A stretch of DNA of 64,000 nucleotides from an uncultured virus (IMG/VR IMGVR_UViG_3300025322_000014) (lineage: Duplodnaviria; Heunggongvirae; Uroviricota; Caudoviricetes), in IMG/VR virus record IMGVR_UViG_3300025322_000014, one strand, 5' to 3'. Every line of letters begins with the position of its first letter. Position 1 is the first letter of the stretch. This document shows, one piece after another, positions 4,336 through 54,911 of this stretch. The position numbers and the translations under genes are program-made. A model generated the notes under the pieces. The model was not told the origin of the DNA and did not search any database. It worked only from the letters and a program-made list of their open reading frames with translations.

Positions 4336-4877
4336 CATTCAGACCTTGCAAAACCAAGAAGTGCGAAAACTTCGTGCCGTTGCCGGAACCAGGCAAGTCA
4401 GGGAGACCGAGAGAATACTGCCACGTTTGTGATCGGCAACGCGATCGGGAACGCAACCGAAAAAAGGGCGGAGCTGCACCCGGCACGTGCAAAACATGTG
4501 GCATCGATATCCCGGTCCATAACGGACGAGGACGACAATTCGAGCGTTGCCTACCATGCCGCCGGATGCGAAACACCTGGCGACCACGCAAGTACAGCCC
4601 CGAGCGGCTCGAGTTTCACCTGCAGGCTCACTCCCGCCTGGCGGCACTGTACAGCCGAGCCGATGCGGAGCAAGCCCTTATCGACGAAGCGCATCGTTTG
4701 TCCGCAACCGGATTGATCCGACGTGATGTCGCGCGGGCAATGCGCAAGCAATACGACACGGTGTCGAAACTTCTCAGTCAACTCCCCACGTCGCATCCCG
4801 CGTACAAACCCCTGGATTCCTTCCTGATTCCCGACCCTCCGAGGGGCTCGGGAGAAAATCTTAACTCTTCGACTTGA
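4332..4877 (+). CDS. Zinc-finger protein with possible C-terminal HTH
   Basis: ATGA overlap with previous gene; GRPREYC..C, CxxC pairs; RRDVARAMRKQYDTVSK. Confidence 0.7.
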   Translation: MTFRPCKTKKCENFVPLPEPGKSGRPREYCHVCDRQRDRERNRKKGGAAPGTCKTCGIDIPVHNGRGRQFERCLPCRRMRNTWRPRKYSPERLEFHLQAHSRLAALYSRADAEQALIDEAHRLSATGLIRRDVARAMRKQYDTVSKLLSQLPTSHPAYKPLDSFLIPDPPRGSGENLNSST

Positions 4878-4902
4878 CAGCCTCGCGGAGCGGTGGTATG
4901 AT
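4874..4902 (+). promoter_or_regulatory. Strong sigma70-type promoter
   Basis: TTGACA-17 nt-TATGAT with extended -10 TG. Confidence 0.85.
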
Positions 4903-4954
4903 TGTGATGCAGTTGTGATTTTCCGCAAAAGAATACATAAGGAAAAGTCAAAAA

Positions 4955-5359
4955 ATGAGCACGTACACCGATGCGGTTAAGGCAATCAAAGTCATCAGTA
5001 ACAGCAAGCAGGACCAGCTGGATCTGAAAGCTGGCGACGCGCGCGCGACAAACCTAGAGGCCCAACGTGCTGCGATCCTTGCGTGGGTTCCTACTACCTC
5101 CCCATGGCACCCGGTCGTCAAATTGCTCGCCGATACGCTCGAGATTGGGGACGAAGAGGATTATCCCCGCTTGCATTTTCCGGACTCAACACGCGACGTG
5201 CTACGCGCAGCTATTGTGGCCGGTTTTGATAATTTTTCGCTTTTGCCGGATTGCACGGGTTTTGAGACCAGCCCCGACCCCGACGCCCATCGCGATGATT
5301 ATGCGGCCTGGTCTGAAGCATCGCAATACCGCGCCAGGCAGTGCCACGCTGCCTTATAA
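4955..5359 (+). CDS. Hypothetical protein
   Basis: 134-aa ORF, TAAGGA RBS, downstream of promoter. Confidence 0.75.
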   Translation: MSTYTDAVKAIKVISNSKQDQLDLKAGDARATNLEAQRAAILAWVPTTSPWHPVVKLLADTLEIGDEEDYPRLHFPDSTRDVLRAAIVAGFDNFSLLPDCTGFETSPDPDAHRDDYAAWSEASQYRARQCHAAL

Positions 5360-9748: not shown

Positions 9749-10027
9749 ATGATCCGTCCGACTGACAACTTTGTTATTATCAAGCCGATTGCGCAGACCA
9801 CATCCCACGGCGGAATTATACTGCCCACAAAGTGCGGAGAACTCGGGACGGCTGCGGTTGTGGCGGTCGGCCCCGGTAGTATTGACAACAACGGCTGCCG
9901 GATTCCCACGGAGTGTGGTGTGTATGACAACGTTCTTTTCCTGAACGATCATGGCTTTGAACTCAACATTGAAGGCGAAAAGCACTTGCTTATACGCGCA
10001 GACGCCATCGTCGGGATTATAGAGTAG
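9749..10027 (+). CDS. groES: Co-chaperonin GroES
   Basis: MIRP..D.V.I, GGIILP, VVAVGPG, IEGEKHLLIRADAIVGII; 92 aa. Confidence 0.93.
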   Translation: MIRPTDNFVIIKPIAQTTSHGGIILPTKCGELGTAAVVAVGPGSIDNNGCRIPTECGVYDNVLFLNDHGFELNIEGEKHLLIRADAIVGIIE

Positions 10028-10138
10028 GACGGTTAGGCGGTGCTCCTGCACGGTCGCTCAAAAACTGCTCGCCATGTGCTGAGGGCTGGCGTTAACTGCC
10101 CTCTGCTTTTTTCTCCATTCTCGTGGAAGGAACTCGTA

Positions 10139-10357
10139 ATGTACAAGATTGTGCGCATGCAGTCGGAGACACCTGTTGGTTGGTGGGCTCTATCAAAAGG
10201 AGACTTTTTCGTGGATGACGGCCGTCTTCACCTTAAAGTCGATGACAATTATTGTATTGCTTTTGAAGGAGTTTCCTCTCCAGCACTAAGCACTAGAACC
10301 GGGCTTTCGAACACGAACCGCCTCAAGCCAGTTAATGTCGAGATAACGGTTTCATAA
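10139..10357 (+). CDS. Hypothetical protein
   Basis: AAGGA RBS; weakly similar to 10540..10758. Confidence 0.65.
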   Translation: MYKIVRMQSETPVGWWALSKGDFFVDDGRLHLKVDDNYCIAFEGVSSPALSTRTGLSNTNRLKPVNVEITVS

Positions 10358-10539
10358 GGCCGAGCTGAATTGGAGTTACCATGACGCAACGTGAGATTAA
10401 ACACATTCTCGAACTAATCGAAAAAATGCCAGGTGGTTAACGTAAGCTCACTCAAGCCGTTTGAAGCCGCCGCGGCCATGAAAGAAATTATTCTCGGGTG
10501 TTTGGCTTTTGACTTCCTAGCAAACTCGGAGACTAAGCG

Positions 10540-10758
10540 ATGACAATAACAGTTGTTCGGCGCTACAAAAAGTTAGAATTTGGTAACTTAGCCAATGGTG
10601 AGTTGTTCCGCCTAGCCGATAACAATTTACTTGGGGATTTGTACCACAAACGTGACGACAGTTTTGCGTATGAGTTTGCGTGCAGAGCTGTGAAGCATTT
10701 TGCGTTTGACGACGAGATCGTCCGCGTAGATGCCAACCTCGAGTGGTGGGATGCGTGA
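10540..10758 (+). CDS. Hypothetical protein
   Basis: GGAG RBS; 72 aa. Confidence 0.7.
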   Translation: MTITVVRRYKKLEFGNLANGELFRLADNNLLGDLYHKRDDSFAYEFACRAVKHFAFDDEIVRVDANLEWWDA

Positions 10759-10943
10759 AGATCAAAGACTGGGAAACGATCGACGGCAAGACCGTACGCG
10801 AATGGATGTGCTGCGGCCTGGTCTGGCAGATGATCATCACGCCGGTCTGGGAAGGATCGTGGTGGAACACACAGTGCCCGAAGTGCGGCGACGAAAAGGA
10901 ACCGCCGCCGGTTCCGATGGATCGTCCTGATTTCAAATGGTAA
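10755..10943 (+). CDS. Small Cys/Trp-rich protein
   Basis: GTGA overlap; CCG..CPKCG. Confidence 0.6.
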   Translation: MKIKDWETIDGKTVREWMCCGLVWQMIITPVWEGSWWNTQCPKCGDEKEPPPVPMDRPDFKW

Positions 10944-11160
10944 GAGGAGATCGCTCAATGATCGCTGGAGCATGCACCGATTGGAATTTCGCCGGGCCAA
11001 ATGTCAACGTGGCCCATGACTACCCTTGCCTACGACTCTGGAAGAAATCTGCCAAGCGGCCGCCGCGCACGCGACAGAACAGGTACGAATTACGCCTACG
11101 GCGTAATGGACACGCAACGACAAAGCCACGAGCACACTGAAATGCTTGTATGAAAGCATA

Positions 11161-11249
11161 GCCCTCCCAGTGGCGGTAGAGTTGGAGGGGCAGGCCCAGC
11201 AGGCGTAGCGTGTCCCGAGCTGGGTTGGTTGGACACCCAAGCCGCCACA
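11161..11249 (+). ncRNA. Candidate pseudoknotted structured RNA heading the tRNA-like array
   Basis: Pairings GCCCTCC/GGAGGGGC, GTGGCGG/CCGCCAC, CCCAGC/GCTGGG, GTGTCC/GGACAC. Confidence 0.45.
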
Positions 11250-11254
11250 TTTTT

Positions 11255-11326
11255 CACCCCGGTCGTTCAGCGGTAGGACACTTTCCATTCCGGAAAGAAA
11301 TATGGGTTCAATTCCCACTGGGGTGT
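11255..11326 (+). tRNA. tRNA-Glu(TTC)-like, atypical (A at position 33)
   Basis: CACCCCG/TGGGGTG acceptor, CTTTC-CATTCCG-GAAAG anticodon arm, GGTTCAATTCCC T arm. Confidence 0.65.
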
Positions 11327-11330
11327 TTTT

Positions 11331-11456
11331 TGCGGTGTAGATCAACGGTAGATCGTCGGGCAAAGCCGGGTGTCGCGAGTCCAAAGGGCTGTGACACGGC
11401 CAGCCACGCGCCCCGGCGTGGACCCAAACATTCCGGTTCGACTCCGGACGCCGCTC
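11331..11456 (+). ncRNA. Initiator-tRNA-shaped RNA with anticodon loop replaced by a ~62-nt structured insert
   Basis: TGCGGTG/CGCCGCT acceptor (1:72 mismatch), GATC/GATC D stem, TCGGG/CCCAA stem, TCCGG-TTCGACT-CCGGA T arm. Confidence 0.75.
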
Positions 11457-11457
11457 T

Positions 11458-11531
11458 GTGGCCGTCGCGTGTTGGTGTCGCGGGCCTGACTGTGGATCAG
11501 GTCGCGTGGGTTCGATTCCCACCGGCCACCC
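11458..11531 (+). tRNA. tRNA-His(GTG), no encoded G-1
   Basis: GTGGCCG/CGGCCAC acceptor, CCTGA-CTGTGGA-TCAGG, GGTTCGATTCCC. Confidence 0.8.
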
Positions 11532-11584
11532 TGCGGGAGCAAACATGAACGCGAAAAAATCGTACCACCTCAAGGAGTCCTATA

Positions 11585-11956
11585 ATGCCTGAGAAAAAGA
11601 AACGAAGTGATGCTGTTCGCGCGTGCGCAACGGCGGCTTGCGACAAATGGTTTTTGGAATCCGGGCGACATGTGTCCGGTAAGATTTTCTACCGCATACT
11701 GGCTGCACTTGAGGGCGCCATGCCCGCGCGCTTCAGCGAACGCCGACCTGCGGTGCCTGAGGAGCCACTGCCGCTTGAGAAGTTCATGGTGCCGGCGCAC
11801 AAACCGATGCTCGTTGAATGGCCTTGTGTTCGCGTCACTAATGATGACTCCGTCGCGCTGTCCACAACTGGCGATCCGGACGTGATTAAATTCCAACCGC
11901 GGCCCTGCGATGTTGTTTTGCCTATCAAAATGGACATACTAGATGACCCTACCTAA
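11585..11956 (+). CDS. Hypothetical protein
   Basis: AAGGAG RBS; 123 aa. Confidence 0.7.
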   Translation: MPEKKKRSDAVRACATAACDKWFLESGRHVSGKIFYRILAALEGAMPARFSERRPAVPEEPLPLEKFMVPAHKPMLVEWPCVRVTNDDSVALSTTGDPDVIKFQPRPCDVVLPIKMDILDDPT

Positions 11957-12118
11957 ACTTCTTCTGCGCCGCGATGGTAAGCAATGGTATGTAAGGGGAC
12001 TACCGGAGTATGAAGTCGACGGGGAGTGGTTCACTGAAGTCGGCCCGTACGATTCCCGTGCCGAGGCAAGTGAATCTCGAGACTCAATGATGTTTGTCTT
12101 TCAAGACTTGGAGAAACC

Positions 12119-12418
12119 ATGAAAGTAAGAGTATCAATCGAAACGGTTAACTGCGACCTTAACGACGATTATTTGGATCCCATCAGCGTGAGTTGTGTCG
12201 ACGACAAGCTGCATTATGCTCTCGCGAGGTGCTTGCGAGCTGTTGATCCTCCGAGGATGTATAACGAGCTTGCCAAAGTAGTTGATTATGTGGCCGATTG
12301 CGACACAACGTCAGAACTTTCAGTCGTCAAGAACGAAACGTTGCTATTTATTCTCGCAGCACGTGATCTAGTTGACCGATACCGGGCTCTCGACAAAGGG
12401 AACTTTGATCGTGTTTGA
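12119..12418 (+). CDS. Hypothetical protein
   Basis: GGAG RBS; 99 aa. Confidence 0.7.
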   Translation: MKVRVSIETVNCDLNDDYLDPISVSCVDDKLHYALARCLRAVDPPRMYNELAKVVDYVADCDTTSELSVVKNETLLFILAARDLVDRYRALDKGNFDRV

Positions 12419-13637
12419 GATCATAAACGCCGAGTGCTTGAGCTATCTCGAAAGTACAACAGAGGTTTCGCTTTGGCATACCATCTTCGCCGACCCGCCG
12501 GATAACATCGGGCTGAAGTATGGGAGCTATGCGGACAACGCGCCGCAAAACGACTATACCAAGACCATGAGGCGATGGATTGAAACTTTCATCGACCATG
12601 CGGAGACAGTCTGGCTGTCGTACAATGCAAAGTGGACGTTTGAAGTCGGAGCGATCGTCAAGAATTTATTGGATGCGCAGCCGTTTTTGAACGCGAAGGC
12701 GTGCGTGCAGACGTTTACTTTCGGTCAGCATAATCAAAAAGACCTTGGGAACAACCACCGTCCGCTGATTCGACTGCAGTGGAATTATGCCAAGCTATAC
12801 CCAGATGCAATCCGCATCCCATCCTGGAGGCAAGAAAACGACGACAAGCGAGCCGACCCACGTGGCCGTGTGCCTGGGGATGCCGCTGAATTTAACCCGC
12901 CCGATACTAAACCATTACCGATATGGGCTCCACAAGACATTATACGATTTCTTGCAAAAGTGCAGCAGGCAGAAAACCATGAATGTTGGGAATGGACCGC
13001 TGGGAAAACTAATGGATATGGCCAGTTTAGAATTGGCACGAATCACTATAGGGCTCCTCGGTTGATGTGGCGGCTTGCGCACGGCTCTGATCCTATGGGC
13101 TCATTGGTCCTGCATGCCTGTGACAATCCTGGATGCTGCAATCCATCCCATCTGTTCTTGGGGTCTGCTTCAGACAACAGCAATGACATGAAACAAAAGG
13201 GGCGAGCAAAACTCTTTATGGGAGAAGAGCATGGCCAAGCGAAATTGTCGGATGAGGCAGTGATTGAAATTTATTGCTCAAGCGAAACGTGCGCAGATCT
13301 AGCCCGAAAGCATGGTGTATCCTCCAGCCTCATTTCTCGTATACGTACAGGCAAGAATTGGACACATGTTACAAGAGATTTACCCCTCTCTGATGTTTTC
13401 AGATTTTCAAGAGTGACCGGGAATTCTAAACAACGAAGGAAGTTCCATCCGACGCAACTTCACGAAGGACTAGTCGAGCGATGTCTGAAGCTGACTACAC
13501 CTCCCGGCGGGAGTGTTCTTGATCCCTTCGGGGGTACGGGAACCACTCTGCGAGTCTGCCGGCGACTAGGTTTTGACTGTACCCTCGTCGAGATTGATCC
13601 GTTTTACTGCGAGAAGATCAGGGAAGAGCACTCCTGA
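12411..13637 (+). CDS. N4/N6 DNA methyltransferase (beta-type order) with in-frame HNH endonuclease + HTH insert
   Basis: ADPPDN near N-term, HPTQ and VLDPFGGTGTT near C-term; internal CWEW..GYG..LHACDNPGCCNPSHL..N..D. Confidence 0.9.
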   Translation: MFEIINAECLSYLESTTEVSLWHTIFADPPDNIGLKYGSYADNAPQNDYTKTMRRWIETFIDHAETVWLSYNAKWTFEVGAIVKNLLDAQPFLNAKACVQTFTFGQHNQKDLGNNHRPLIRLQWNYAKLYPDAIRIPSWRQENDDKRADPRGRVPGDAAEFNPPDTKPLPIWAPQDIIRFLAKVQQAENHECWEWTAGKTNGYGQFRIGTNHYRAPRLMWRLAHGSDPMGSLVLHACDNPGCCNPSHLFLGSASDNSNDMKQKGRAKLFMGEEHGQAKLSDEAVIEIYCSSETCADLARKHGVSSSLISRIRTGKNWTHVTRDLPLSDVFRFSRVTGNSKQRRKFHPTQLHEGLVERCLKLTTPPGGSVLDPFGGTGTTLRVCRRLGFDCTLVEIDPFYCEKIREEHS

Positions 13638-13695
13638 CAAAGGCTACCCAATTGCTAGGCCAATTAAACTAGGTTGCTACCTCGGAGAAAATCTT

Positions 13696-14109
13696 ATGAA
13701 CGTTTATGTTATAATGCATGGCGAGTACTCTGATCAGCGTATCACTGCGGTGTTCAGCGAAGACTATTATACTGAGGCAAAAAAGTTTGCCGAGTTATCG
13801 GACGGTTATCTGCAGGAATTTGAATTAAATTCTTTGCAACCCGAAGATCCCCCGGCAGGCAAGATATTTGTGAGGCTCAACATGCTAAAGGATGGCACTG
13901 TGGCTTCTATCTGGACAGAACATCCGCTTGACTATCAGGGAAAAAGGCGCAAATCTACTTATAGCGTGGACAACGTCATCCGATGGAATCTAGCAGCTCA
14001 CCTATACGCTCTCTCTGAGGAGCACGCCATCAAAGTAGTAAATGAGTTGCGCGGGCACATCCTTGCTGGCTGCACCCCGAACACCAATAACGATTGGCAA
14101 TCTTGTTAG
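13696..14109 (+). CDS. Hypothetical phage protein
   Basis: GGAG RBS; MNVYVIMHGEYSD..I.AVFS N-terminus. Confidence 0.75.
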   Translation: MNVYVIMHGEYSDQRITAVFSEDYYTEAKKFAELSDGYLQEFELNSLQPEDPPAGKIFVRLNMLKDGTVASIWTEHPLDYQGKRRKSTYSVDNVIRWNLAAHLYALSEEHAIKVVNELRGHILAGCTPNTNNDWQSC

Positions 14110-14137
14110 TATGACAGCAAAGGCTGGCGAGTAGTTT

Positions 14138-14219
14138 GCGTCGGCACCGGGCATTGGCGAGCCCAAGTGACTGTAAATCACCCGCTTCGGCTGTGCAGGT
14201 TCGACTCCTGCCCGGCGCA
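14138..14219 (+). tRNA. tRNA-Tyr(GTA)
   Basis: GCGTCGG/CCGGCGC acceptor, GTGA-CTGTAAA-TCAC, long variable arm, GGTTCGACTCC. Confidence 0.85.
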
Positions 14220-14237
14220 CTCCTGCGGAGCAATGAG

Positions 14238-14468
14238 ATGAGTAAGATTTGGTTTGAAGGCCAGTATGGTATGTCGAATTTTAAGGCTGCCGAATTCCAC
14301 GGTACGGTCTACTGGGCCACAAACGGCGAGGGATACGCGGCGGTGTTTAATGGTTGGACACTTAAGAAGAGGTTTTCAAGCGTTGACGAAGCCAAAAGAG
14401 CCGTTGAGAAACTGGCCAGGACGAAAGCTACCCAATTGTTGGACCTGCTCGGTCCTACGGAGCAATGA
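14238..14468 (+). CDS. Hypothetical protein, paralog of 14829..15062
   Basis: MSKIWFEG..FHG.VY..FNG..KK.F..EKLAR.KATQLL shared. Confidence 0.8.
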   Translation: MSKIWFEGQYGMSNFKAAEFHGTVYWATNGEGYAAVFNGWTLKKRFSSVDEAKRAVEKLARTKATQLLDLLGPTEQ

Positions 14469-14469
14469 G

Positions 14470-14808
14470 ATGAACGAGCCACTCGTGCAATTAACCATCA
14501 CCGAGATGTCAATGATCCACAAAGCCAGAAATAAAGAGTGTAGAGCTGCGTGGGATCGGCACAAGGAAGCCGAGGCGATAGGAGACAAAGCCGGCTCGGC
14601 TGCAGCTAGAGCGGAATATGATGACGTTTGTGCGTTCATGGATTTTTGGAGTAACCTTATCCGGCAGGACAAGGCCCTAGGGGTCGAAACCGAAATGTGC
14701 TTTATTTGTACGCACTACTACAACAAAGAAGATGAGTGTCTTCGTGACGGAATAAATTTATGTCCTGATTGCGCTGAAAATAGATACAATCCACCGTGGT
14801 ACAACTAG
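14470..14808 (+). CDS. Hypothetical protein with C-terminal CxxC pairs
   Basis: Same GGAGCAATGAGATG leader as both flanking paralogs. Confidence 0.75.
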   Translation: MNEPLVQLTITEMSMIHKARNKECRAAWDRHKEAEAIGDKAGSAAARAEYDDVCAFMDFWSNLIRQDKALGVETEMCFICTHYYNKEDECLRDGINLCPDCAENRYNPPWYN

Positions 14809-14828
14809 CACTCTTGCGGAGCAATGAG

Positions 14829-15062
14829 ATGAGTGAAATTTGGTTTGAAGGCCCGTACGGTACGTTGAAATTTCATGCTGCTGGATTCCATGGATCGGTA
14901 TATTCGGCCGCGGACGGAGGAGGATTCAAGGCCGAATTCAACGGCCGGGCAATCAAAAAGAAATTTTTTACGACTTGTAAAGCAAAGAAAGCTATGGAGA
15001 AACTGGCAAGGCTGAAAGCTACCCAATTGCTAGCGTGTCTAGACGCTGGCATCAGCGATTAG
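14829..15062 (+). CDS. Hypothetical protein, paralog of 14238..14468
   Basis: Clear aa and nt similarity. Confidence 0.8.
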   Translation: MSEIWFEGPYGTLKFHAAGFHGSVYSAADGGGFKAEFNGRAIKKKFFTTCKAKKAMEKLARLKATQLLACLDAGISD

Positions 15063-15113
15063 CCCTTCTTATGTGCTATTATTGATACCGTGAGTATCAA
15101 AAACGACGCAAAA

Positions 15114-15869
15114 CTAAAGAGCCTGCTGGAACGGCACGCAGCCAAGAATCTTGTCAACTGCCCAGCTTAAATCTGGGATCTCGACTTCCTCATGCGCCCC
15201 GCCCAGACGAATCCAGATCAGAGTCATCAACTCGGCGCCGTAGTTGTAGCGATCAGCTAGGATCCGGCGGTACAGGTTAAGCTGGAGCGCGTAGTGCCAG
15301 ACGTTGCTGTCGTGGAGTTTTCGCAGCGGCGTCTTCATCCGCTTGTATCCCGCCAGGTCGATTTTAGCTGAGGTTTTGAAGTCAACAATGGCAGGCACCC
15401 CACGCAAGCTGCAGACTAGGTCGCAGGTCCCCGCGATACCCCACTCGGGCTGACAGATGCGAACCTCTGGGACGGCCCAGCCAAACGACAGCTCAGCATG
15501 AGCCTCGTAGAAACCCCAGACGCCCAGGTAATACCCCCCGGCCGGACGGTTTGGGGGGACCTCCCCCCTCGTCCATGCTCCGCAGGAATTGACCTGGTGC
15601 GCGATTCGCTCCGCCTCTTGGTGCACCTCCGTACCGAGATCGGCGGCGTCCTGTCCCTTCTGGTGCCAGTCCTGGAGCACTGAATCGACCGATCTTCCTT
15701 CACGGTAGGCTACCCTACCGGCGTGAAACTGGGCATCAAAGGGGTGCGAGAAGGATTCGACAACGCGGGTAACGGACGTTAACCGCTGCCCGCGGTACGT
15801 GTAGGCGTGCTCCGCAGGATCGAAGACAAGATCGGAGTCGAAGAAATCATCCTGTGTTAGAGTACCCAC
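15114..15869 (-). CDS. PD-(D/E)XK exonuclease (Cas4/RecB-like)
   Basis: SVT, GTEVH, IAGTCDL..IVDFKT, YALQLNLY. Confidence 0.88.
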   Translation of the reverse strand: MGTLTQDDFFDSDLVFDPAEHAYTYRGQRLTSVTRVVESFSHPFDAQFHAGRVAYREGRSVDSVLQDWHQKGQDAADLGTEVHQEAERIAHQVNSCGAWTRGEVPPNRPAGGYYLGVWGFYEAHAELSFGWAVPEVRICQPEWGIAGTCDLVCSLRGVPAIVDFKTSAKIDLAGYKRMKTPLRKLHDSNVWHYALQLNLYRRILADRYNYGAELMTLIWIRLGGAHEEVEIPDLSWAVDKILGCVPFQQAL

Positions 15870-16480
15870 TTGCTCAATGCCTCTTGGCTCTCTTCTCCCT
15901 TTAGGAGTATCTGGATGCTATCAACAATTCCGACATCGGTCAGCTCCGCTGGTCTTTCTGTGATGGCTTGCGATACGCCAGGCTCTTCCCGGTCATGCAT
16001 GCATATCAAGCCGCCGGCAGCGACTTTTGGAGCCCAGCAGCGCAGATCAGTCATCACTTCGTGGTAGTGGTGGTCACCATCGATGAACAGGAGGTCGATG
16101 CTCCCGCAGGGCCAGGCTGCGGCGGCGCGGGCAGAGGGTAACTCGACCGCCGAGATCACCCCTCCTAGGCCGGAAGTCATGACATTCTTTCGCCACTGTG
16201 TTGCATCACCGGGGCCATACGCAATTGTGGCACTTGTTAGACTTGGCAAGTGTGGGTCGACGCAATATATTCTGGCACCACCCCCGTGAAAACTACCGTA
16301 GGCCATGGCGAGCGCGGACAGCCCTTGGTAGGTCCCGATCTCGACAATATCTTGATACGCAACAACGCGGTTTGCGGCGTGCGAGATAAAATATGCTTCA
16401 TTGATAGTCAACCAACCGCGAACTCGATTTGACATGTCACGGAAAAAGACATCGAAGTAGAAGATATTGAAGTTTGTCAT
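15857..16480 (-). CDS. Class I SAM-dependent methyltransferase (Methyltransf_24-like)
   Basis: GWL...E, IVEIGTYQGLS, IDLLFIDGDH, GGLICMHD. Confidence 0.88.
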   Translation of the reverse strand: MTNFNIFYFDVFFRDMSNRVRGWLTINEAYFISHAANRVVAYQDIVEIGTYQGLSALAMAYGSFHGGGARIYCVDPHLPSLTSATIAYGPGDATQWRKNVMTSGLGGVISAVELPSARAAAAWPCGSIDLLFIDGDHHYHEVMTDLRCWAPKVAAGGLICMHDREEPGVSQAITERPAELTDVGIVDSIQILLKGEESQEALSKWVL

Positions 16481-16515: not shown

Positions 16516-17565
16516 TTAGATTGCATTCTTTTCCAGAACATACGCACCGTTTTTGATAGCCGAAATCATCTCATCCGGCGTGTCGAACCCCTTCCTATGG
16601 AGGTCAATGCGGCTCCAGAATTCCGTACCGTCCAGACGATCACCGTTAACATATCCCGAGTATGCGTCAATCCACTGGCACATGTGGCCGTTGATCATCT
16701 CTTCCTTCTCGAATCTCGAGTTCTCTGGCCTCTGAATATCCGGCGGGTCACTTGCCGCGTGGGCGCCGTTGTGGTAACTTTGTTCCTTTGTGTGCAGTGT
16801 ATGTCCACGTATTGTGGACATACTGTCACTTGCCGCTATCGCCGCCTCAAATGCGCGACTCACCGGCTCGATCCCTGCGGGGGCTGCTTGCTCGGCGTCT
16901 TCAAATGCTTTTCGATTTGTAGTCCAGTCCATGACAAAATCTACGGGATTTTTAATTACTTTTTTCCCCCACACAACATCGTCAAGTGTGCCGCGGATTT
17001 CTTGGCGGTCGTTCTTACGATCTACCGGCTCGAATTGTGTGGCCACATAATCAAACCATTCCTTTGCCCACGGGGAGTCGTTGTGCGGCGTGGATTCCTG
17101 ACACCACACGATCTTCTTGCCCTTGAAGTATGTGTCGCCGTCTTTGATTGTGTACTGCTTCGGATTGTGATCCTTGAACACCTCTTTGAGATGGGCGACA
17201 TGTTTCTCCAGCTCATTGATGCGTTTGTCAATAGGCGCTGCAGGCGGTCGATCATCTTCCAGCTTCCCACACAGCTCAGCGTCCAGGAGTATTCCGGCGG
17301 AGGCAATGATGCTTGCGAGATGTTTGACCTGGGTCTTCGGGTCCTCGTTCTGCCCGTTCCACCACTCCATCATGTGCCTGCCCATCGCTTCGCGATAGAT
17401 TGAGGCACGTACGCCGGCGATTCGCCAGTTGTAGCGGCCGTATTTCAAGGCGCCTTCGAGGAACGCCATGGATACTTCGACGTCGATTGTGTCGGGGATT
17501 AAGCCGAGTGGAATCTTTCCACTGCCGATGATATCCTTCGGGTTGGATGGTTTTGTATCGCTCAT
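16516..17565 (-). CDS. dATP/dGTP diphosphohydrolase (DUF5664) domain protein with C-terminal extension
   Basis: NPKD..G..K.PL.LIP, EGALKYGRYNWR, AM.RH..W.NG...DP....HL. Confidence 0.85.
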   Translation of the reverse strand: MSDTKPSNPKDIIGSGKIPLGLIPDTIDVEVSMAFLEGALKYGRYNWRIAGVRASIYREAMGRHMMEWWNGQNEDPKTQVKHLASIIASAGILLDAELCGKLEDDRPPAAPIDKRINELEKHVAHLKEVFKDHNPKQYTIKDGDTYFKGKKIVWCQESTPHNDSPWAKEWFDYVATQFEPVDRKNDRQEIRGTLDDVVWGKKVIKNPVDFVMDWTTNRKAFEDAEQAAPAGIEPVSRAFEAAIAASDSMSTIRGHTLHTKEQSYHNGAHAASDPPDIQRPENSRFEKEEMINGHMCQWIDAYSGYVNGDRLDGTEFWSRIDLHRKGFDTPDEMISAIKNGAYVLEKNAI

Positions 17566-34727: not shown

Positions 34728-35264
34728 TTATTCGGGTAAAACCTGCTGACGGCAATCGCTTAGTGCGTTTTCGGATAGGGCGGAGGGTTCGTATTGGACC
34801 AGGATTTCCTTGGCGTATCTTATCAGGTCCTCAACTCGCTGTCCAGCCGGCTGGCTTTTGCACCAAAGTTCTAGATTTTCGGGACGGTTGTCTTTCCTGA
34901 TCCCATTTTTATGGTGAACAGTTTCGTTGGATCTTAGTCTTCTCCCAATAATCTTCTCTGCGACAAGCCTGTGATCAAAAATATATCCCCTCCCAGGTAT
35001 ATTAGTCTTTGTGTATCCCTGGTTTTCAATTTTTCCACCTTTCCAATTTGTGCTGAATTTTCCTGTTCTTGCACACCGGCCGGCATAAAAGTCTTTGAGT
35101 AGACACCCACAACTTCTTGTCTTGTGCGCAGTAAGTTCTCTTCCATCTATGATTTTTGAGTTTCCACAATCACAGACACACAACCATTTTCTGTTTCCTT
35201 TGTAGGATACAGCTGTTAAACGGCCGTACTGCTTTCCTGTCCGGTCTAATATTGGCTTGGCCAT
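34728..35264 (-). CDS. HNH homing endonuclease
   Basis: TGKQYGRLT..WLCVCDCG; HRLVAE..VHHKNG...DNRPENL. Confidence 0.9.
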   Translation of the reverse strand: MAKPILDRTGKQYGRLTAVSYKGNRKWLCVCDCGNSKIIDGRELTAHKTRSCGCLLKDFYAGRCARTGKFSTNWKGGKIENQGYTKTNIPGRGYIFDHRLVAEKIIGRRLRSNETVHHKNGIRKDNRPENLELWCKSQPAGQRVEDLIRYAKEILVQYEPSALSENALSDCRQQVLPE

Positions 35265-35794
35265 GGAGGTGGAGGCATCCGAATAAAAGTCCAACAGAAA
35301 CTTCCGCGTGCTCTCCATTCCAGCAGAAAAGCCTCACGGTCATAAACAATATAGGTCTGCGATGTGTTATTGTCAAGCACTATAGCTTTTTTTCCGCCTT
35401 CAATGTATCCGAGAAAGTTTTGGGCATGGGCCTGGCCAAAAAAAATTCCCGCTGGGATCCGGTTTCGTGAGCACCATTCAAGCAATTCTTCACTACCATC
35501 ACTTGAGTACGCAAACTTCAAACCAGAGTCTTGCATGTGTTGAATGTGACTTGTGGTTATTTCTCCCCCTTCAAAATTCTGTCTCCACCAAGTTGCGTGC
35601 TCATACAATCCTAAAAAATTTAAAATCGTGATTGTGCTGGCGTTAACGCAGCTTCCTCGGCTATCTCTACTCGAGTCCCAATTTGGTTGCCTTAACTGCC
35701 ACGGCACGTCTGCTAGTGTCTCTATAACTTTACCCGGCGTCTGCGCCGCAACCGGCGCCGCGCACAACATCAGAAATATCACCGTTCGGTGCAT
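35246..35794 (-). CDS. Exported papain-fold (C39-like) cysteine peptidase
   Basis: Signal peptide; GSCVNAS, HAQNF, LDNN putative Cys-His-Asp. Confidence 0.65.
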   Translation of the reverse strand: MHRTVIFLMLCAAPVAAQTPGKVIETLADVPWQLRQPNWDSSRDSRGSCVNASTITILNFLGLYEHATWWRQNFEGGEITTSHIQHMQDSGLKFAYSSDGSEELLEWCSRNRIPAGIFFGQAHAQNFLGYIEGGKKAIVLDNNTSQTYIVYDREAFLLEWRARGSFCWTFIRMPPPPWPSQY

Positions 35795-54331: not shown

Positions 54332-54808
54332 TTACGCGACTTCTCGCGTTCGCGCTTCGCCATCGCGTCGACCATCGACTTCTTGGAGGGCATCTGTTTG
54401 CGACCGCCGGTCATTGGCATACGAGCCATAATGTGCTCCTGTTGGGTTTAGGTAGGCGAAAAACTTTTCAGCGATCGGGGCTATACGTTTCTCATAGTAA
54501 CCGACTGCGATGTTGCACGGTCTGCACAAAATACCTCTCACTTGGCCTGTCTCATAGTTGTGGTCTATGTGAGAACTTTTGTTAATCAAGCATCCGCATA
54601 AAGCGCATTGGAAATTCTGCGATTCCAGCAACGCTTTATGTTGGTGCTTGTTAAGACCGAATTTTGCTTTCCGGCTCGAAGCAACATTGTTGTCCGCGCA
54701 AACTTGGCATTTTGTCTTGTCAGGGCGCCTATCACGACCGCACTGACATTTACCGGCGGCCTTTTTTTTATCCCGCCATCTTTTTACCGGCCAGTAATTT
54801 GGATGCAC
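54332..54808 (-). CDS. Endonuclease VII-like (homing-type) nuclease
   Basis: KFGL..QNFQCALCG, HIDH...TGQVRGILC..CN. Confidence 0.88.
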   Translation of the reverse strand: MHPNYWPVKRWRDKKKAAGKCQCGRDRRPDKTKCQVCADNNVASSRKAKFGLNKHQHKALLESQNFQCALCGCLINKSSHIDHNYETGQVRGILCRPCNIAVGYYEKRIAPIAEKFFAYLNPTGAHYGSYANDRRSQTDALQEVDGRRDGEARTREVA

Positions 54809-54911
54809 TGCTGTTTCCCCCAACAGAAAACACCCAAGAAAAATCAAAGGGGCAGGCGGCTTGGGGACCGCTTTTCGGCGATCAACCTAGCCCCAATGTT
54901 ATTCTACTGCG

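Follow-up and report, generated by a model that had tools for sequence, protein, structure and literature searches.

One gene in the window (the whole 64,000-nt stretch of viral DNA that was analysed) encodes a 408-aa beta-class N6_N4 DNA methyltransferase that is interrupted, in frame, by an HNH nuclease. Judged from sequence, this is probably a homing endonuclease gene that is translated as an unspliced internal domain, at the point where the target-recognition region of the methyltransferase ends. The initial annotation had put forward such an unspliced homing endonuclease as one of two readings, and it is this one that our analysis favours: the insert is patchily distributed, near-identical alleles occur with and without it, its history is discordant with that of its host gene, in-frame remnants of it survive in relatives, and free-standing homologs of it neighbour some of the empty alleles.

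Architecture of the interrupted methyltransferase

The open reading frame extends from 12372 to 13637 on the plus strand (open-frame listing and translation). We take the GTG at 12411 as its likely start because the insert-free homolog P0034 begins MFEIINADCLDY where the protein here has VFEIINAECLSY; this choice was made by alignment with P0034 and other homologs. From that codon, a single frame of 408 codons spans the insert with no in-frame stop, as first described. Its features are:

12411..13637, plus strand: whole gene, methyltransferase::HNH frame of 408 codons, GTG start and TGA stop (ORF list, translation)
12411..12878, plus strand: methyltransferase N-terminal part, residues 1–156, ending in the conserved PSWRQENDDKRADPRGRVPG segment (Pfam PF01555)
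12492..12503, plus strand: motif IV, DPPD, residues 28–31 (read from the sequence)
12879..13391, plus strand: in-frame insert of 171 codons, a complete HNH_3 nuclease and a putative helical DNA-binding tail (alignment with insert-free homologs)
12879..12882, plus strand: GATG, left copy of the 4-nt junction repeat (sequence)
13053..13181, plus strand: HNH_3 nuclease core, residues 215–257, HACDNPGCCNPSHLFLG...DN..D (Pfam HNH_3, zf-His_Me_endon)
13251..13373, plus strand: C-terminal helical module of the insert, about residues 281–321, probably HTH (predicted models, weak HTH matches)
13392..13395, plus strand: GATG, right copy of the 4-nt junction repeat (sequence)
13392..13634, plus strand: methyltransferase C-terminal part, residues 328–408, with DVFRFSRVTGNSKQRR, HPTQ and FGGTG (Pfam, phmmer to 8urk)
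Within the methyltransferase C-terminal part: HPTQ, residues 346–349
13527–13544, plus strand: FGGTG, motif I, residues 373–377 (sequence)

Alignment with insert-free homologs places the extra piece between RGRVPG and DVFRFSRVTGNSKQRR and fixes its length, earlier estimated at about 171 codons, at exactly 171 residues. Because GATG does occur at both ends (12879–12882 and 13392–13395), the boundary is ambiguous by 4 nt, and 12882–13394, as originally given, is equally valid. The insert lacks its own start, stop and ribosome-binding site; the earliest in-frame start-capable codon within it, a GTG at V184, already lies inside the first conserved helix.

Two stretches of the host protein match N6_N4_Mtase (PF01555), at 89.1 bits (cut-off 26.7). 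The insert comes after DPP and before FGGTG, in agreement with the initial placement between DPP and FxGxG, and this is the normal beta-class order: in our alignments, the succession of motif IV, target-recognition region, X and I matches that of M.RsrI and M.BceJIV. The initial annotation had also drawn attention to DPPD in place of DPPY. This departure is real, in that the aromatic fourth residue of (D/N/S)PP(Y/F/W/H) is absent, but it bears no relation to the insert, since D occupies the fourth column in 114/114 homologs with a residue there and the motif is thus family-wide. Given this invariance, the host protein may not be a conventional adenine methyltransferase. Another invariant residue, Y37, lies six residues past DPPD and aligns with Tyr68 of M.BceJIV, described in the available text of PMC11380664 as contacting the flipped adenine. 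The DPPD motif is not mentioned in the literature that was searched.

Aligned with M.BceJIV and M.RsrI, the PSWRQENDDKRADPRGRVPG segment that leads into the insert falls at the end of their target-recognition region (phmmer to 8urk and 1eg2; the limits of this region are those in the available text of PMC11380664). The DVFRFSRVTGNSKQRR segment that follows aligns with strand β6 and loop-6F of M.BceJIV (phmmer to 8urk), and the same text describes loop-6F as DNA-contacting. The insert site is the border where the target-recognition region ends and strand β6 begins, a surface slot that is variable among beta-class enzymes. A Foldseek search with an AF2 model of the whole protein (mean pLDDT 88.4) returned M.BceJIV as its best match (8urk; E 4.7e-14, target-normalised TM 0.77), with RsrI, CcrM and MboIIA among the further matches, and the model resembles beta-class N6A methyltransferases on both sides of the insert. 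Model confidence is lowest in two linkers (10-residue block means of 72 and 70 for residues 151–170, and 58 for residues 321–330), and pLDDT dips to 64–77 within the insert, at residues 251–280. The structure prediction that had been recommended as a check therefore yields two folds: in the model, those of the methyltransferase and the HNH nuclease are both intact, joined by low-confidence linkers.

The inserted nuclease and the absence of splicing signatures

Residues 215–257 match the Pfam family HNH_3 at 34.2 bits (cut-off 24.8), and zf-His_Me_endon also matches. Free-standing HNH proteins of 145–170 aa, from phages and metagenomes, cover 83–95% of the insert at 40–50% identity, and compared with these proteins the insert shows no internal deletion; by these sequence comparisons, it is one whole free-standing phage HNH endonuclease. 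A second HNH_3 gene in the window (34731–35318, minus strand) was considered as a close relative of the insert and rejected (BLASTP E 4.7). The core, H.CDNP.CCNP.HLFLG..dN.D, is at least 90% conserved across the 54 inserts found at this site (see below); across 83 HNH homologs, H79, C81, D82, C86, H91 and N100 do not vary. Comparing L001 with L002, we obtained pN/pS of 0.193/0.781 for the HNH part, and 0.112/0.557 and 0.133/0.554 for the flanks. Core conservation and these substitution patterns indicate that the nuclease is maintained.

In structure, the resemblance of the insert to solved homing endonucleases is moderate. When the model of the insert was searched with VIA, I-PpoI (Z 6.9) and I-HmuI (Z 6.8; rmsd 2.9 over 86 residues) were the top two of 48161 chains, at Z values (<8) that can arise by chance. 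A Foldseek search of the PDB with the same model gave no match at E ≤ 0.001 (best, I-PpoI at 0.067 and I-HmuI at 0.16), and a PDB sequence search with the insert gave 0 matches at E ≤ 1. Less can be said for the HTH that had been placed in the insert: helices in the C-terminal module are seen in the whole-protein and the insert-only models, and residues 112–170 of the latter match HTH domains weakly (Z up to 4.7).

The HNH of this copy shares no more than 58% identity with that of any other insert found; it lies on a long end branch (0.91), as the most divergent of its subclade, and its donor is therefore not among the sampled inserts. Such divergence would also be expected of a tolerated relic, that is, an insert that arrived by homing, no longer cuts, and sits harmlessly in a dispensable methyltransferase. 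Decay remnants in relatives, which show that the lineage degenerates, speak for the same idea, as does the finding that only the occupied allele (≥99% identity) was seen in four soil metagenome runs. We nevertheless consider a relic improbable: all 13 columns that are invariant among the 83 homologs are kept in this copy, including the core H, C, D, N and H, the insert modelled alone folds at a mean pLDDT of 93.9, and it lacks internal deletions when set against the free-standing homologs.

Nothing that would excise the insert was recognized. Neither a Hint nor an intein family was matched in Pfam at E ≤ 0.1, and the nuclease and its helical tail take up all 171 residues, with no space for a splicing domain. 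The end residues of an intein are absent as well, as initially reported: the insert starts D/A and ends L-S(-D), followed by D/V/F, with no nucleophile at the junctions. The reported lack of an intron core also stands, in that an Rfam E-value scan of 10000–16000 against the curated families gave only tRNAs and chance-level rows, and no group I or II intron. Furthermore, both flanking motifs lie in one stop-free frame in 75/75 loci that were fetched with tblastn, independently of gene calls; the motifs are 139–308 codons apart in 14 of these loci and 131–138 codons apart in the other 61. The absence of known signatures and the conserved frame argue against splicing.

The initial annotation had noted that the two flanks echo each other. 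In this copy the echo is weak (D-x-x-x-F; DAAEF versus DVFRF); it is clearer in relatives (PGDV..F.. versus sDVF.F) and strong, at 5–19 aa, in non-HNH inserts at the same site. We have considered whether this junction repeat might be the signal for an uncatalogued form of splicing, at the RNA or the protein level, bearing in mind that the start of the insert echoes downstream host sequence both here and, in the available text of PMC11855218, in ShiLan elements, and that GATG stands at both junctions. We judge this very improbable. A protein-level route is opposed by the lack of a Hint domain, of spare residues and of a junction nucleophile. As to an RNA-level route, no Rfam intron is present, protein-level constraint on the whole insert leaves no room for an RNA core, and 14/14 of the longer loci keep the frame open, which would be unnecessary if the RNA were spliced.

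This phage was found in 17 sequencing runs, all of them DNA, from soil or sediment metagenomes. Reads from four soil metagenome runs (X11–X14; positions 12000–14000, depth 2–6) included only pieces of at least 99% identity, bridged both junctions and contained no joints; no insert-free variant of this phage was present among them.

Occupied, empty and remnant alleles

Among the best 120 homologs, 54 carry a full insert, at an identical site in every case, and 56 are empty, so that the domain is not a fixture of the family, a possibility that the initial annotation had raised. In the other ten, we found an in-frame partial remnant (five), an 11-aa footprint (four) or 3 extra residues (one). Some of the remnants have lost the nuclease, kept the frame, and retain the HTH only. 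Since the HNH was part of the query, insert-bearers are over-represented in this set: in samples drawn without ranking on the HNH, a full insert occurs in only 2/57 viral loci and 0/27 loci of cellular genomes. Cellular copies of this methyltransferase family are almost all in Planctomycetota.

On an unrooted tree built solely from the methyltransferase part (114 rows, after removal of 6 fragments), full inserts are scattered: 16 changes are needed, at least nine of them forced by starred branches. In an AU test on an 82-row subclade (LG+G4; 32 deep rows left out), holding the 17 full rows as one clade costs 731 lnL (p-AU 3.6e-7). One pair of opposite states, P0007 (full) and P0096 (empty), differ at 4/251 residues, plus the insert. 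P0001 and the empty P0034 differ at 29/235 residues; 22 of these fall in residues 1–63, and four hug the junction (V154I, D328S, R331D and S333P). The position after DVF carries a signature: it is D in 50/56 empty alleles versus only 6/54 occupied ones. P0096 is empty yet has the ‘occupied’ N signature, which suggests that at least some of the changes are losses. The tree, being unrooted, reads gain and precise loss alike.

The histories of the two parts were also compared directly. The 54 inserted HNHs occupy one side of a branch (support 81) that separates them from 117 free-standing and two adjacent homologs; in this tree, the inserted HNHs at this site are one lineage. The methyltransferase parts of P0015 and P0019 are 91% identical but their HNH parts 55%, and the HNH tree rejects the two as sisters (p-AU 0.0063, for a pair picked after the identities were known). 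Many HNH and methyltransferase clades are congruent, which points to much vertical inheritance, and over 1128 pairs the HNH parts are on average 55% identical and the methyltransferase parts 56%.

Several other arrangements of the same components were observed. Homologous free-standing HNH ORFs lie immediately downstream of the empty alleles in L030 and L036 (39–48% identity to this insert, E 1e-40 to 1e-46), and in P0112 an HNH is fused in frame at the C-terminus of the methyltransferase. A free-standing HNH gene next to the methyltransferase gene was probably the starting point of the lineage. The same site is used in P0339 by another HNH lineage, unrelated to the first, and a free-standing member of that lineage lies downstream in L035 (45% identity over 106 aa). 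We also scanned 30 longer HNH-matching proteins for nestings within other host proteins: the only other nesting in a methyltransferase is P0339. HNH_3 alone is shown by 27/30, often with zf-His_Me_endon and/or HTH-type families; P0315 has HTH-type and other families and no HNH_3, and P0329 has a single HNH_3 domain.

We propose that an HNH_3 (His-Me finger) homing endonuclease lives in the phage beta-class methyltransferase gene as a permanent in-frame domain. The fusion protein would be made as such, with the methyltransferase presumably still functional. On meeting a relative with an empty allele, through co-infection or as a prophage, the HNH would nick or cut the conserved DNA that encodes the GRVPG/DVFDFPRVTGNSKQRR junction, and repair, with the occupied allele as template, would transfer the insert and a few codons next to it. 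The nuclease would afterwards decay by in-frame deletions or be lost precisely, to leave HTH-only remnants, short duplicated footprints and empty sites.

The same data have to be weighed against a domesticated fusion, in which the HNH-HTH is a working part of the enzyme, either as a nuclease directed against unmethylated DNA of competitors or of the host, in a single-chain, restriction-modification-like protein, or as an extra DNA-recognition module next to the target-recognition region. It could explain why the insert lies exactly at the end of the target-recognition region, beside the loop that aligns with loop-6F, why the nuclease core is conserved over a lineage as deep as the methyltransferase family (by the mean identities above), and why so many clades of the two parts are congruent. 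Yet near-identical alleles exist with and without the insert, remnants stay in frame without the nuclease, short footprints persist, and full inserts are rare once ranking on the HNH is avoided. Small free-standing phage genes of this HNH family are, moreover, common, and an unrelated HNH lineage at the same site fits a homing target better than a co-adapted domain. A domesticated fusion therefore seems unlikely to us. The second reading in the initial annotation, a single-chain nuclease-methylase for self/non-self discrimination, fares no better: nothing specific favours it, and it clashes with the frequency of empty, remnant and footprint alleles.

Relation to known inserted endonucleases

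To our knowledge, homing endonuclease genes are thought to survive in essential or useful genes only inside a self-splicing intron or intein. Work on the ShiLan domain suggested a third way, in the available text, whereby the insert is simply translated through (PMC9957025; PMC11855218). Here, the nuclease is itself the translated insert, so that a second frame, a second start codon and a splicing step are all unneeded; we view this locus as the plainest form of that idea.

ShiLan, or ‘hidden HNH’, is an insertion in actinobacteriophage DNA methylases (Gosselin et al. 2023, PMC9957025; Arsenault, Gosselin & Gogarten 2025, PMC11855218) and is the closest precedent. As far as the available text of these papers describes it, both systems have a frame-preserving insertion in a phage DNA methyltransferase gene, no detectable intein or intron, a disjunct distribution among close alleles, an HNH endonuclease, and an insert start that echoes the residues after the site (weakly in this copy). 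In that text, however, the ShiLan HNH has a GTG start and a TAA stop to itself and is read in a frame other than that of the methylase, whose own frame yields a featureless loop across the insertion; here the HNH_3 match lies in the methyltransferase frame, and the HNH must therefore be part of the methyltransferase polypeptide, as a domain within it. The type of HNH is also different (HNH_3 and a helical tail here), as are the host methyltransferase (the actinophage methylases are about 28% identical to the present family) and the hosts (see Planctomycetota, above). The same-frame version appears to be new: in the literature searched, only the ShiLan papers bear on an unspliced, same-frame HNH in a methyltransferase, and their supplements or the authors' repository may hold cases. 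A methylase of the actinophage Taj gp79 type contains a lone in-frame LAGLIDADG domain (available text of PMC9957025 and PMC11855218). It resembles the present protein in having a homing-type endonuclease domain in the methylase frame with no intein or intron detected there; it differs in its LAGLIDADG type, in its site, and in that its carriers are one clade and look vertically inherited, whereas the HNH here is patchy. Inteins with an HNH endonuclease domain likewise interrupt a phage gene in frame, at a conserved position (available part of bioRxiv 10.1101/2025.01.02.630785). Unlike these, the present insert has neither a splicing domain nor nucleophiles at its junctions.

In T-even phages, free-standing endonucleases home without an intron, and the neighbouring HNH genes in the present family resemble them. 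I-HmuI is intron-encoded. The insert shares with I-HmuI (PDB 1U3E) and with free-standing phage HNH_3 proteins a layout with the nuclease at the N-terminus and a helical DNA-binding part at the C-terminus, and some of the free-standing homologs directly adjoin the methyltransferase gene; the difference is that the insert is nested inside its presumed target gene. In fungal mitochondrial genes, in-frame homing endonuclease insertions carry a duplicate of the displaced host segment. The likeness is that an endonuclease is fused in frame to a host gene with its target region partly duplicated; the fungal enzymes, however, are LAGLIDADG or GIY-YIG and fused terminally, whereas the HNH here is internal, and we treat the resemblance as a lead.

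The family preserves what can be read as stages: free-standing neighbour, C-terminal fusion, nested domain, nuclease-less remnant, footprint and empty site. Two unrelated HNH lineages converge on the one site. Matched pairs of occupied and empty alleles occur naturally, and a single small gene lends itself to a direct test.

Two further ideas are held only tentatively, and we think it doubtful that either applies. One is a coupling of nuclease and methyltransferase: as the HNH-HTH hangs beside a DNA-contacting loop, DNA recognition or methylation state could steer or gate the nuclease, and one polypeptide would then mark self DNA and cut unmarked rival alleles or genomes. The other is that the duplicated target segment may reflect a common, undescribed, splice-free route by which endonuclease genes integrate; ShiLan elements have such a segment, as do several non-HNH inserts at this site.

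An HNH endonuclease nested in frame in a methyltransferase gene

The window is a phage genome fragment, encoding SU10-type portal and adaptor proteins, a family A DNA polymerase, a D5-like primase-helicase, a RecD-like helicase and six tRNAs. The gene of interest has these features:

12372-13637, + strand: methyltransferase::HNH ORF, from the ORF list
12411, + strand: likely GTG start, so placed because it matches the first residue of insert-free homologs
12879-13391, + strand: 171-codon insert, from alignment with homologs

Pfam assigns the 408-residue product (P0001) to N6_N4_Mtase through two separated stretches (89.1 bits against a cut-off of 26.7), and its residues 215-257 to HNH_3 (34.2 bits against a cut-off of 24.8); zf-His_Me_endon also matches these residues, below threshold. 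Alignment with homologs shows an extra piece of exactly 171 residues, with RGRVPG before it and DVFRFSRVTGNSKQRR after; its boundary slides by four bases because GATG is present at both junctions. The initial annotation had thus described the insert correctly, as about 171 in-frame codons that split the methyltransferase.

Pfam finds no Hint or intein domain in P0001 at E ≤ 0.1, and the junction residues (D/A at the insert start; L-S-D at its end, then V/F) include no nucleophile and no His-Asn, which bears out an earlier claim that intein ends are absent. An Rfam E-value scan of 10000-16000 returned tRNAs and chance-level rows only. In all 75 homologous loci with both flanking motifs in one frame, no stop codon lies in between (139-308 codons separate the motifs in 14 loci, 131-138 in the other 61), and no tblastn-fetched locus has the motifs in different frames. 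Because these loci came from tblastn and not from gene calls, ORF prediction cannot account for the frame conservation. The open frame speaks for translation through the insert, and methyltransferase and HNH would then probably be made as one chain. Beside this open frame, we regard it as very improbable that an uncatalogued splicing mechanism removes the insert.

Modelled alone, the insert is predicted to fold with a mean pLDDT of 93.9, all 171 residues being taken up by that protein. Its residues 1-110 are closest to two His-Me finger homing endonucleases, I-PpoI (Z 6.9) and I-HmuI (Z 6.8, with an rmsd of 2.9 across 86 residues), which rank first and second among 48161 chains, and its final 60 residues are similar to HTH domains, with Z reaching 4.7. 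All of these are middling Z values, and with the insert model Foldseek gives no match at E ≤ 0.001; the family assignment therefore comes mainly from Pfam, PHROG HNH families and sequence relatives. The insert is matched by 1508 proteins at E ≤ 0.001; among the best 120 of these, three are methyltransferase fragments and many others are small free-standing HNH_3 proteins (145-170 aa), which, among the matches listed, show 40-50% identity across 83-95% of the insert. On these grounds, the insert is a complete phage HNH endonuclease without a start or stop of its own. The window has a second, free-standing HNH_3 gene (34731-35318, - strand; 196 aa) between the replication and structural modules, whose product is not close kin of the nested insert (BLASTP E 4.7).

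The host methyltransferase and its insertion slot

The AF2 model of the whole of P0001 (mean pLDDT 88.4, pTM 0.66) is least confident at two linkers, where means of 10-residue blocks are 72 and 70 for residues 151-170 and 58 for residues 321-330. Within the insert, confidence drops again, to 64-77, at residues 251-280. Foldseek aligns this model across the insert to beta-class N6-adenine methyltransferases, M.BceJIV being the best match (8urk; E 4.7e-14, target-normalised TM 0.77) and RsrI, CcrM and MboIIA further ones. In phmmer alignments of the empty homolog P0034, the insertion point falls after 'nP' and before 'kdVw' in M.BceJIV; in M.RsrI, 'GRNPT' precedes it and 'NVWRMSRLNGNSLER' follows. 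According to the M.BceJIV paper (PMC11380664), the target-recognition region comprises residues 167-194, and loop-6F, which follows it, contacts minor-groove bases through Arg203, His205 and Gln207. Chain index and paper numbering differ by one residue; once this is corrected for, alignment to these M.BceJIV elements puts the insert at the end of the target-recognition region, directly ahead of strand beta6, so that the nuclease would hang beside the DNA-binding face; RVTGNSKQRR, downstream of the insert, aligns with loop-6F. This slot varies naturally among beta-class enzymes, which offers a reason for tolerance of a 171-residue domain, and the fusion protein may well retain methyltransferase activity.

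Motif IV (12492-12503) reads DPPD, not DPPY/F/W/H. This had been noticed in the initial annotation and is real; it is unrelated to the insert, being family-wide (D in 114 of the 114 listed homologs with a residue at that column). In a literature search on the term DPPD, none of the papers listed uses it. Members of the family may be something other than conventional adenine methyltransferases, or may rely on an invariant Tyr six residues downstream.

Distribution and history of the insert

State of the insertion site in the best 120 of 1895 matches to P0001, a set in which insert-bearers are over-represented, since the HNH was part of the query
Full insert, 162-189 residues: 54 of 120
Empty site: 56 of 120
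Partial insert, 43-61 residues: 5 of 120
11-residue footprint: 4 of 120
3 extra residues at the site: 1 of 120

In DNA fetched by tblastn, the full insert is present in 2 of 57 viral loci (L001 and L002) and 0 of 27 cellular loci; four metagenome runs contained the occupied allele only, at low depth, and no RNA run was listed among those containing the window's sequence. On a methyltransferase tree (methyltransferase columns only; 114 rows, six fragments having been dropped), full inserts need 16 state changes, at least nine of which are forced by well-supported branches. Within an 82-row subclade that includes P0001, constraining the 17 full rows to be monophyletic lowers the log-likelihood by 731 units (p-AU 3.6e-7, LG+G4). 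Our trees are unrooted and made by a quick method, and any assignment of these changes to gain or loss is accordingly provisional.

In several sister pairs one member is full and the other empty: P0007 (full) and P0096 (empty) differ at 4 of 251 residues. At the protein level, P0001 differs from the empty P0034, its nearest relative among the matches listed, at 29 of 235 residues; 22 of these differences lie in residues 1-63 and four within six residues of the junction, and residues 64-131 and 334-407 are identical. Beside such mixed pairs, a domesticated, functionally coupled nuclease-methyltransferase fusion, to which the predicted position at the DNA-binding face might be suited, seems to us improbable. 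Among the best 120 matches, 50 of 56 empty alleles have D immediately after DVF, versus 6 of 54 occupied ones, which mostly have N (32) or R (11) there. P0096 is empty and carries the 'occupied' N, which hints at precise loss of the insert.

The 54 inserted HNHs lie on one side of a branch that separates them from 117 free-standing and two gene-adjacent homologs (FastTree, support 81), a grouping that would be compatible with one original capture. Identities of the HNH and methyltransferase parts are only moderately correlated (r = 0.54, 1128 pairs of full sequences): the methyltransferase parts of P0015 and P0019 are 91% identical and their HNH parts 55%, and the values for P0004 and P0013 are 87% and 64%. 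A sister relationship of P0015 and P0019 is rejected on the HNH tree (p-AU 0.0063, for a pair picked after the identities had been seen). For other clades the two trees agree, and vertical descent is therefore common too.

Across the 54 inserts, conservation of the nuclease core, H.CDNP.CCNP.HLFLG..dN.D, is 90% or higher. Between L001 and L002, pN and pS are 0.193 and 0.781 in the HNH part, and 0.112/0.557 and 0.133/0.554 in the flanks; the ratio in the HNH part resembles that of the flanks and its total divergence is larger. Bearing this conservation in mind, we think it quite unlikely that the P0001 copy specifically is an inactive, tolerated relic.

Related forms, precedents and genomic setting

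In P0052, P0054, P0056 and locus L004, only the C-terminal helical part of the insert remains, in frame, and P0073, P0077, P0100 and P0103 carry an 11-residue tandem echo, GDVFDMQYPEPGDVFDF. Short non-HNH inserts of 22-59 aa occupy the same site in L025 (4001-4885), L036 (4001-4800), L037 (4001-4807), P0065 and P0067, each lying beside a duplicated copy of a host motif 5 to about 19 residues in length (for example PGDVLDF...PGDVLDF, and DAFDFTKLPEKQRRDWH versus DHFDFTRVTGNSKQRRNWH); endonuclease attack could have left them as scars, or they could be what remains of other elements. In L030 (39% identity, E 8e-40) and L036 (48%, E 4e-46), an empty allele is followed immediately by an insert homolog with an ORF of its own. 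P0112, which may be cut by a contig end, is an empty methyltransferase extended in frame at its C-terminus by an HNH that shares 54% identity with the free-standing HNH of L036; the methyltransferase sister of P0112, P0045, has the nested form. A different HNH lineage, with no BLASTP match to the insert at E ≤ 0.01, is nested at the same site in P0339, a distant homolog (36% identical; Pfam N6_N4_Mtase and HNH_3). This second lineage, of the DH..DRN..NN..NL type with what by eye is an AP2-like tail, also occurs as a separate gene in L035 (about 4700-5300; 45% over 106 residues), where it follows closely on an empty methyltransferase allele.

The simplest account of the locus is that a homing endonuclease gene without a splicing vehicle is translated together with its target gene and forms a surface domain of the resulting protein, and we consider this probable. 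The in-frame endonuclease would spread when empty alleles, its putative cleavage target, are cleaved and then repaired from an occupied allele; it would decay by in-frame deletion, and would sometimes be lost precisely.

In a literature search that took in the main text of Arsenault et al. 2025 (PMC11855218), the only close precedent is ShiLan, described there and by Gosselin et al. 2023 (PMC9957025) as an unspliced, frame-preserving insertion in actinophage methylases with its HNH in another frame; some methylases of this type have a lone in-frame LAGLIDADG domain (PMC9957025, PMC11855218). HNH-like insertions in other methylases are mentioned without detail (PMC11855218). The start of the ShiLan insert echoes the residues after the insertion site (PMC9957025, PMC11855218), as does, though weakly, that of the present insert. 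In contrast to ShiLan, the present nuclease is in the host frame, and sits in another methyltransferase family, the cellular copies of which come nearly all from Planctomycetota MAGs, with a fuller series of evolutionary stages and a second HNH lineage converging on the same site.

Of the cellular copies (L081-L107), 23 of 27 are named as planctomycete lineages and 2 of 27 as Aureliella, a planctomycete genus; one Thermoguttaceae chromosome has three (L081, L093, L094). This near-confinement, together with three copies on one chromosome, suggests that the cellular copies are prophages and that the window's phage has a planctomycete host.

Other features of the window were noted:

16519-17565 and 15860-16480, - strand: dATP/dGTP diphosphohydrolase N-terminal domain protein (PF18909, E 2.7e-22) adjoining a Methyltransf_24 protein
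14212-14241, 14444-14473, 14803-14832: 30-nt element ending GGAGCAATGAGATGA, three copies ahead of small genes
13636-13661, 14420-14445, 15011-15036: 26-nt element containing CTACCCAATTG
54335-54847, - strand: endonuclease VII family protein (PF02945, E 1.3e-14), among structural genes

Diphosphohydrolases of this type belong to phage DNA base-replacement pathways; no adenylosuccinate-synthase-like partner was found at E ≤ 1e-4 among 74 ORFs scanned in the window. The small genes 14136-14468 and 14796-15062, both preceded by the 30-nt element, are paralogs; the 26-nt element forms their 3' ends and also lies directly after the methyltransferase stop codon, and these repeats may mark a recombination seam.
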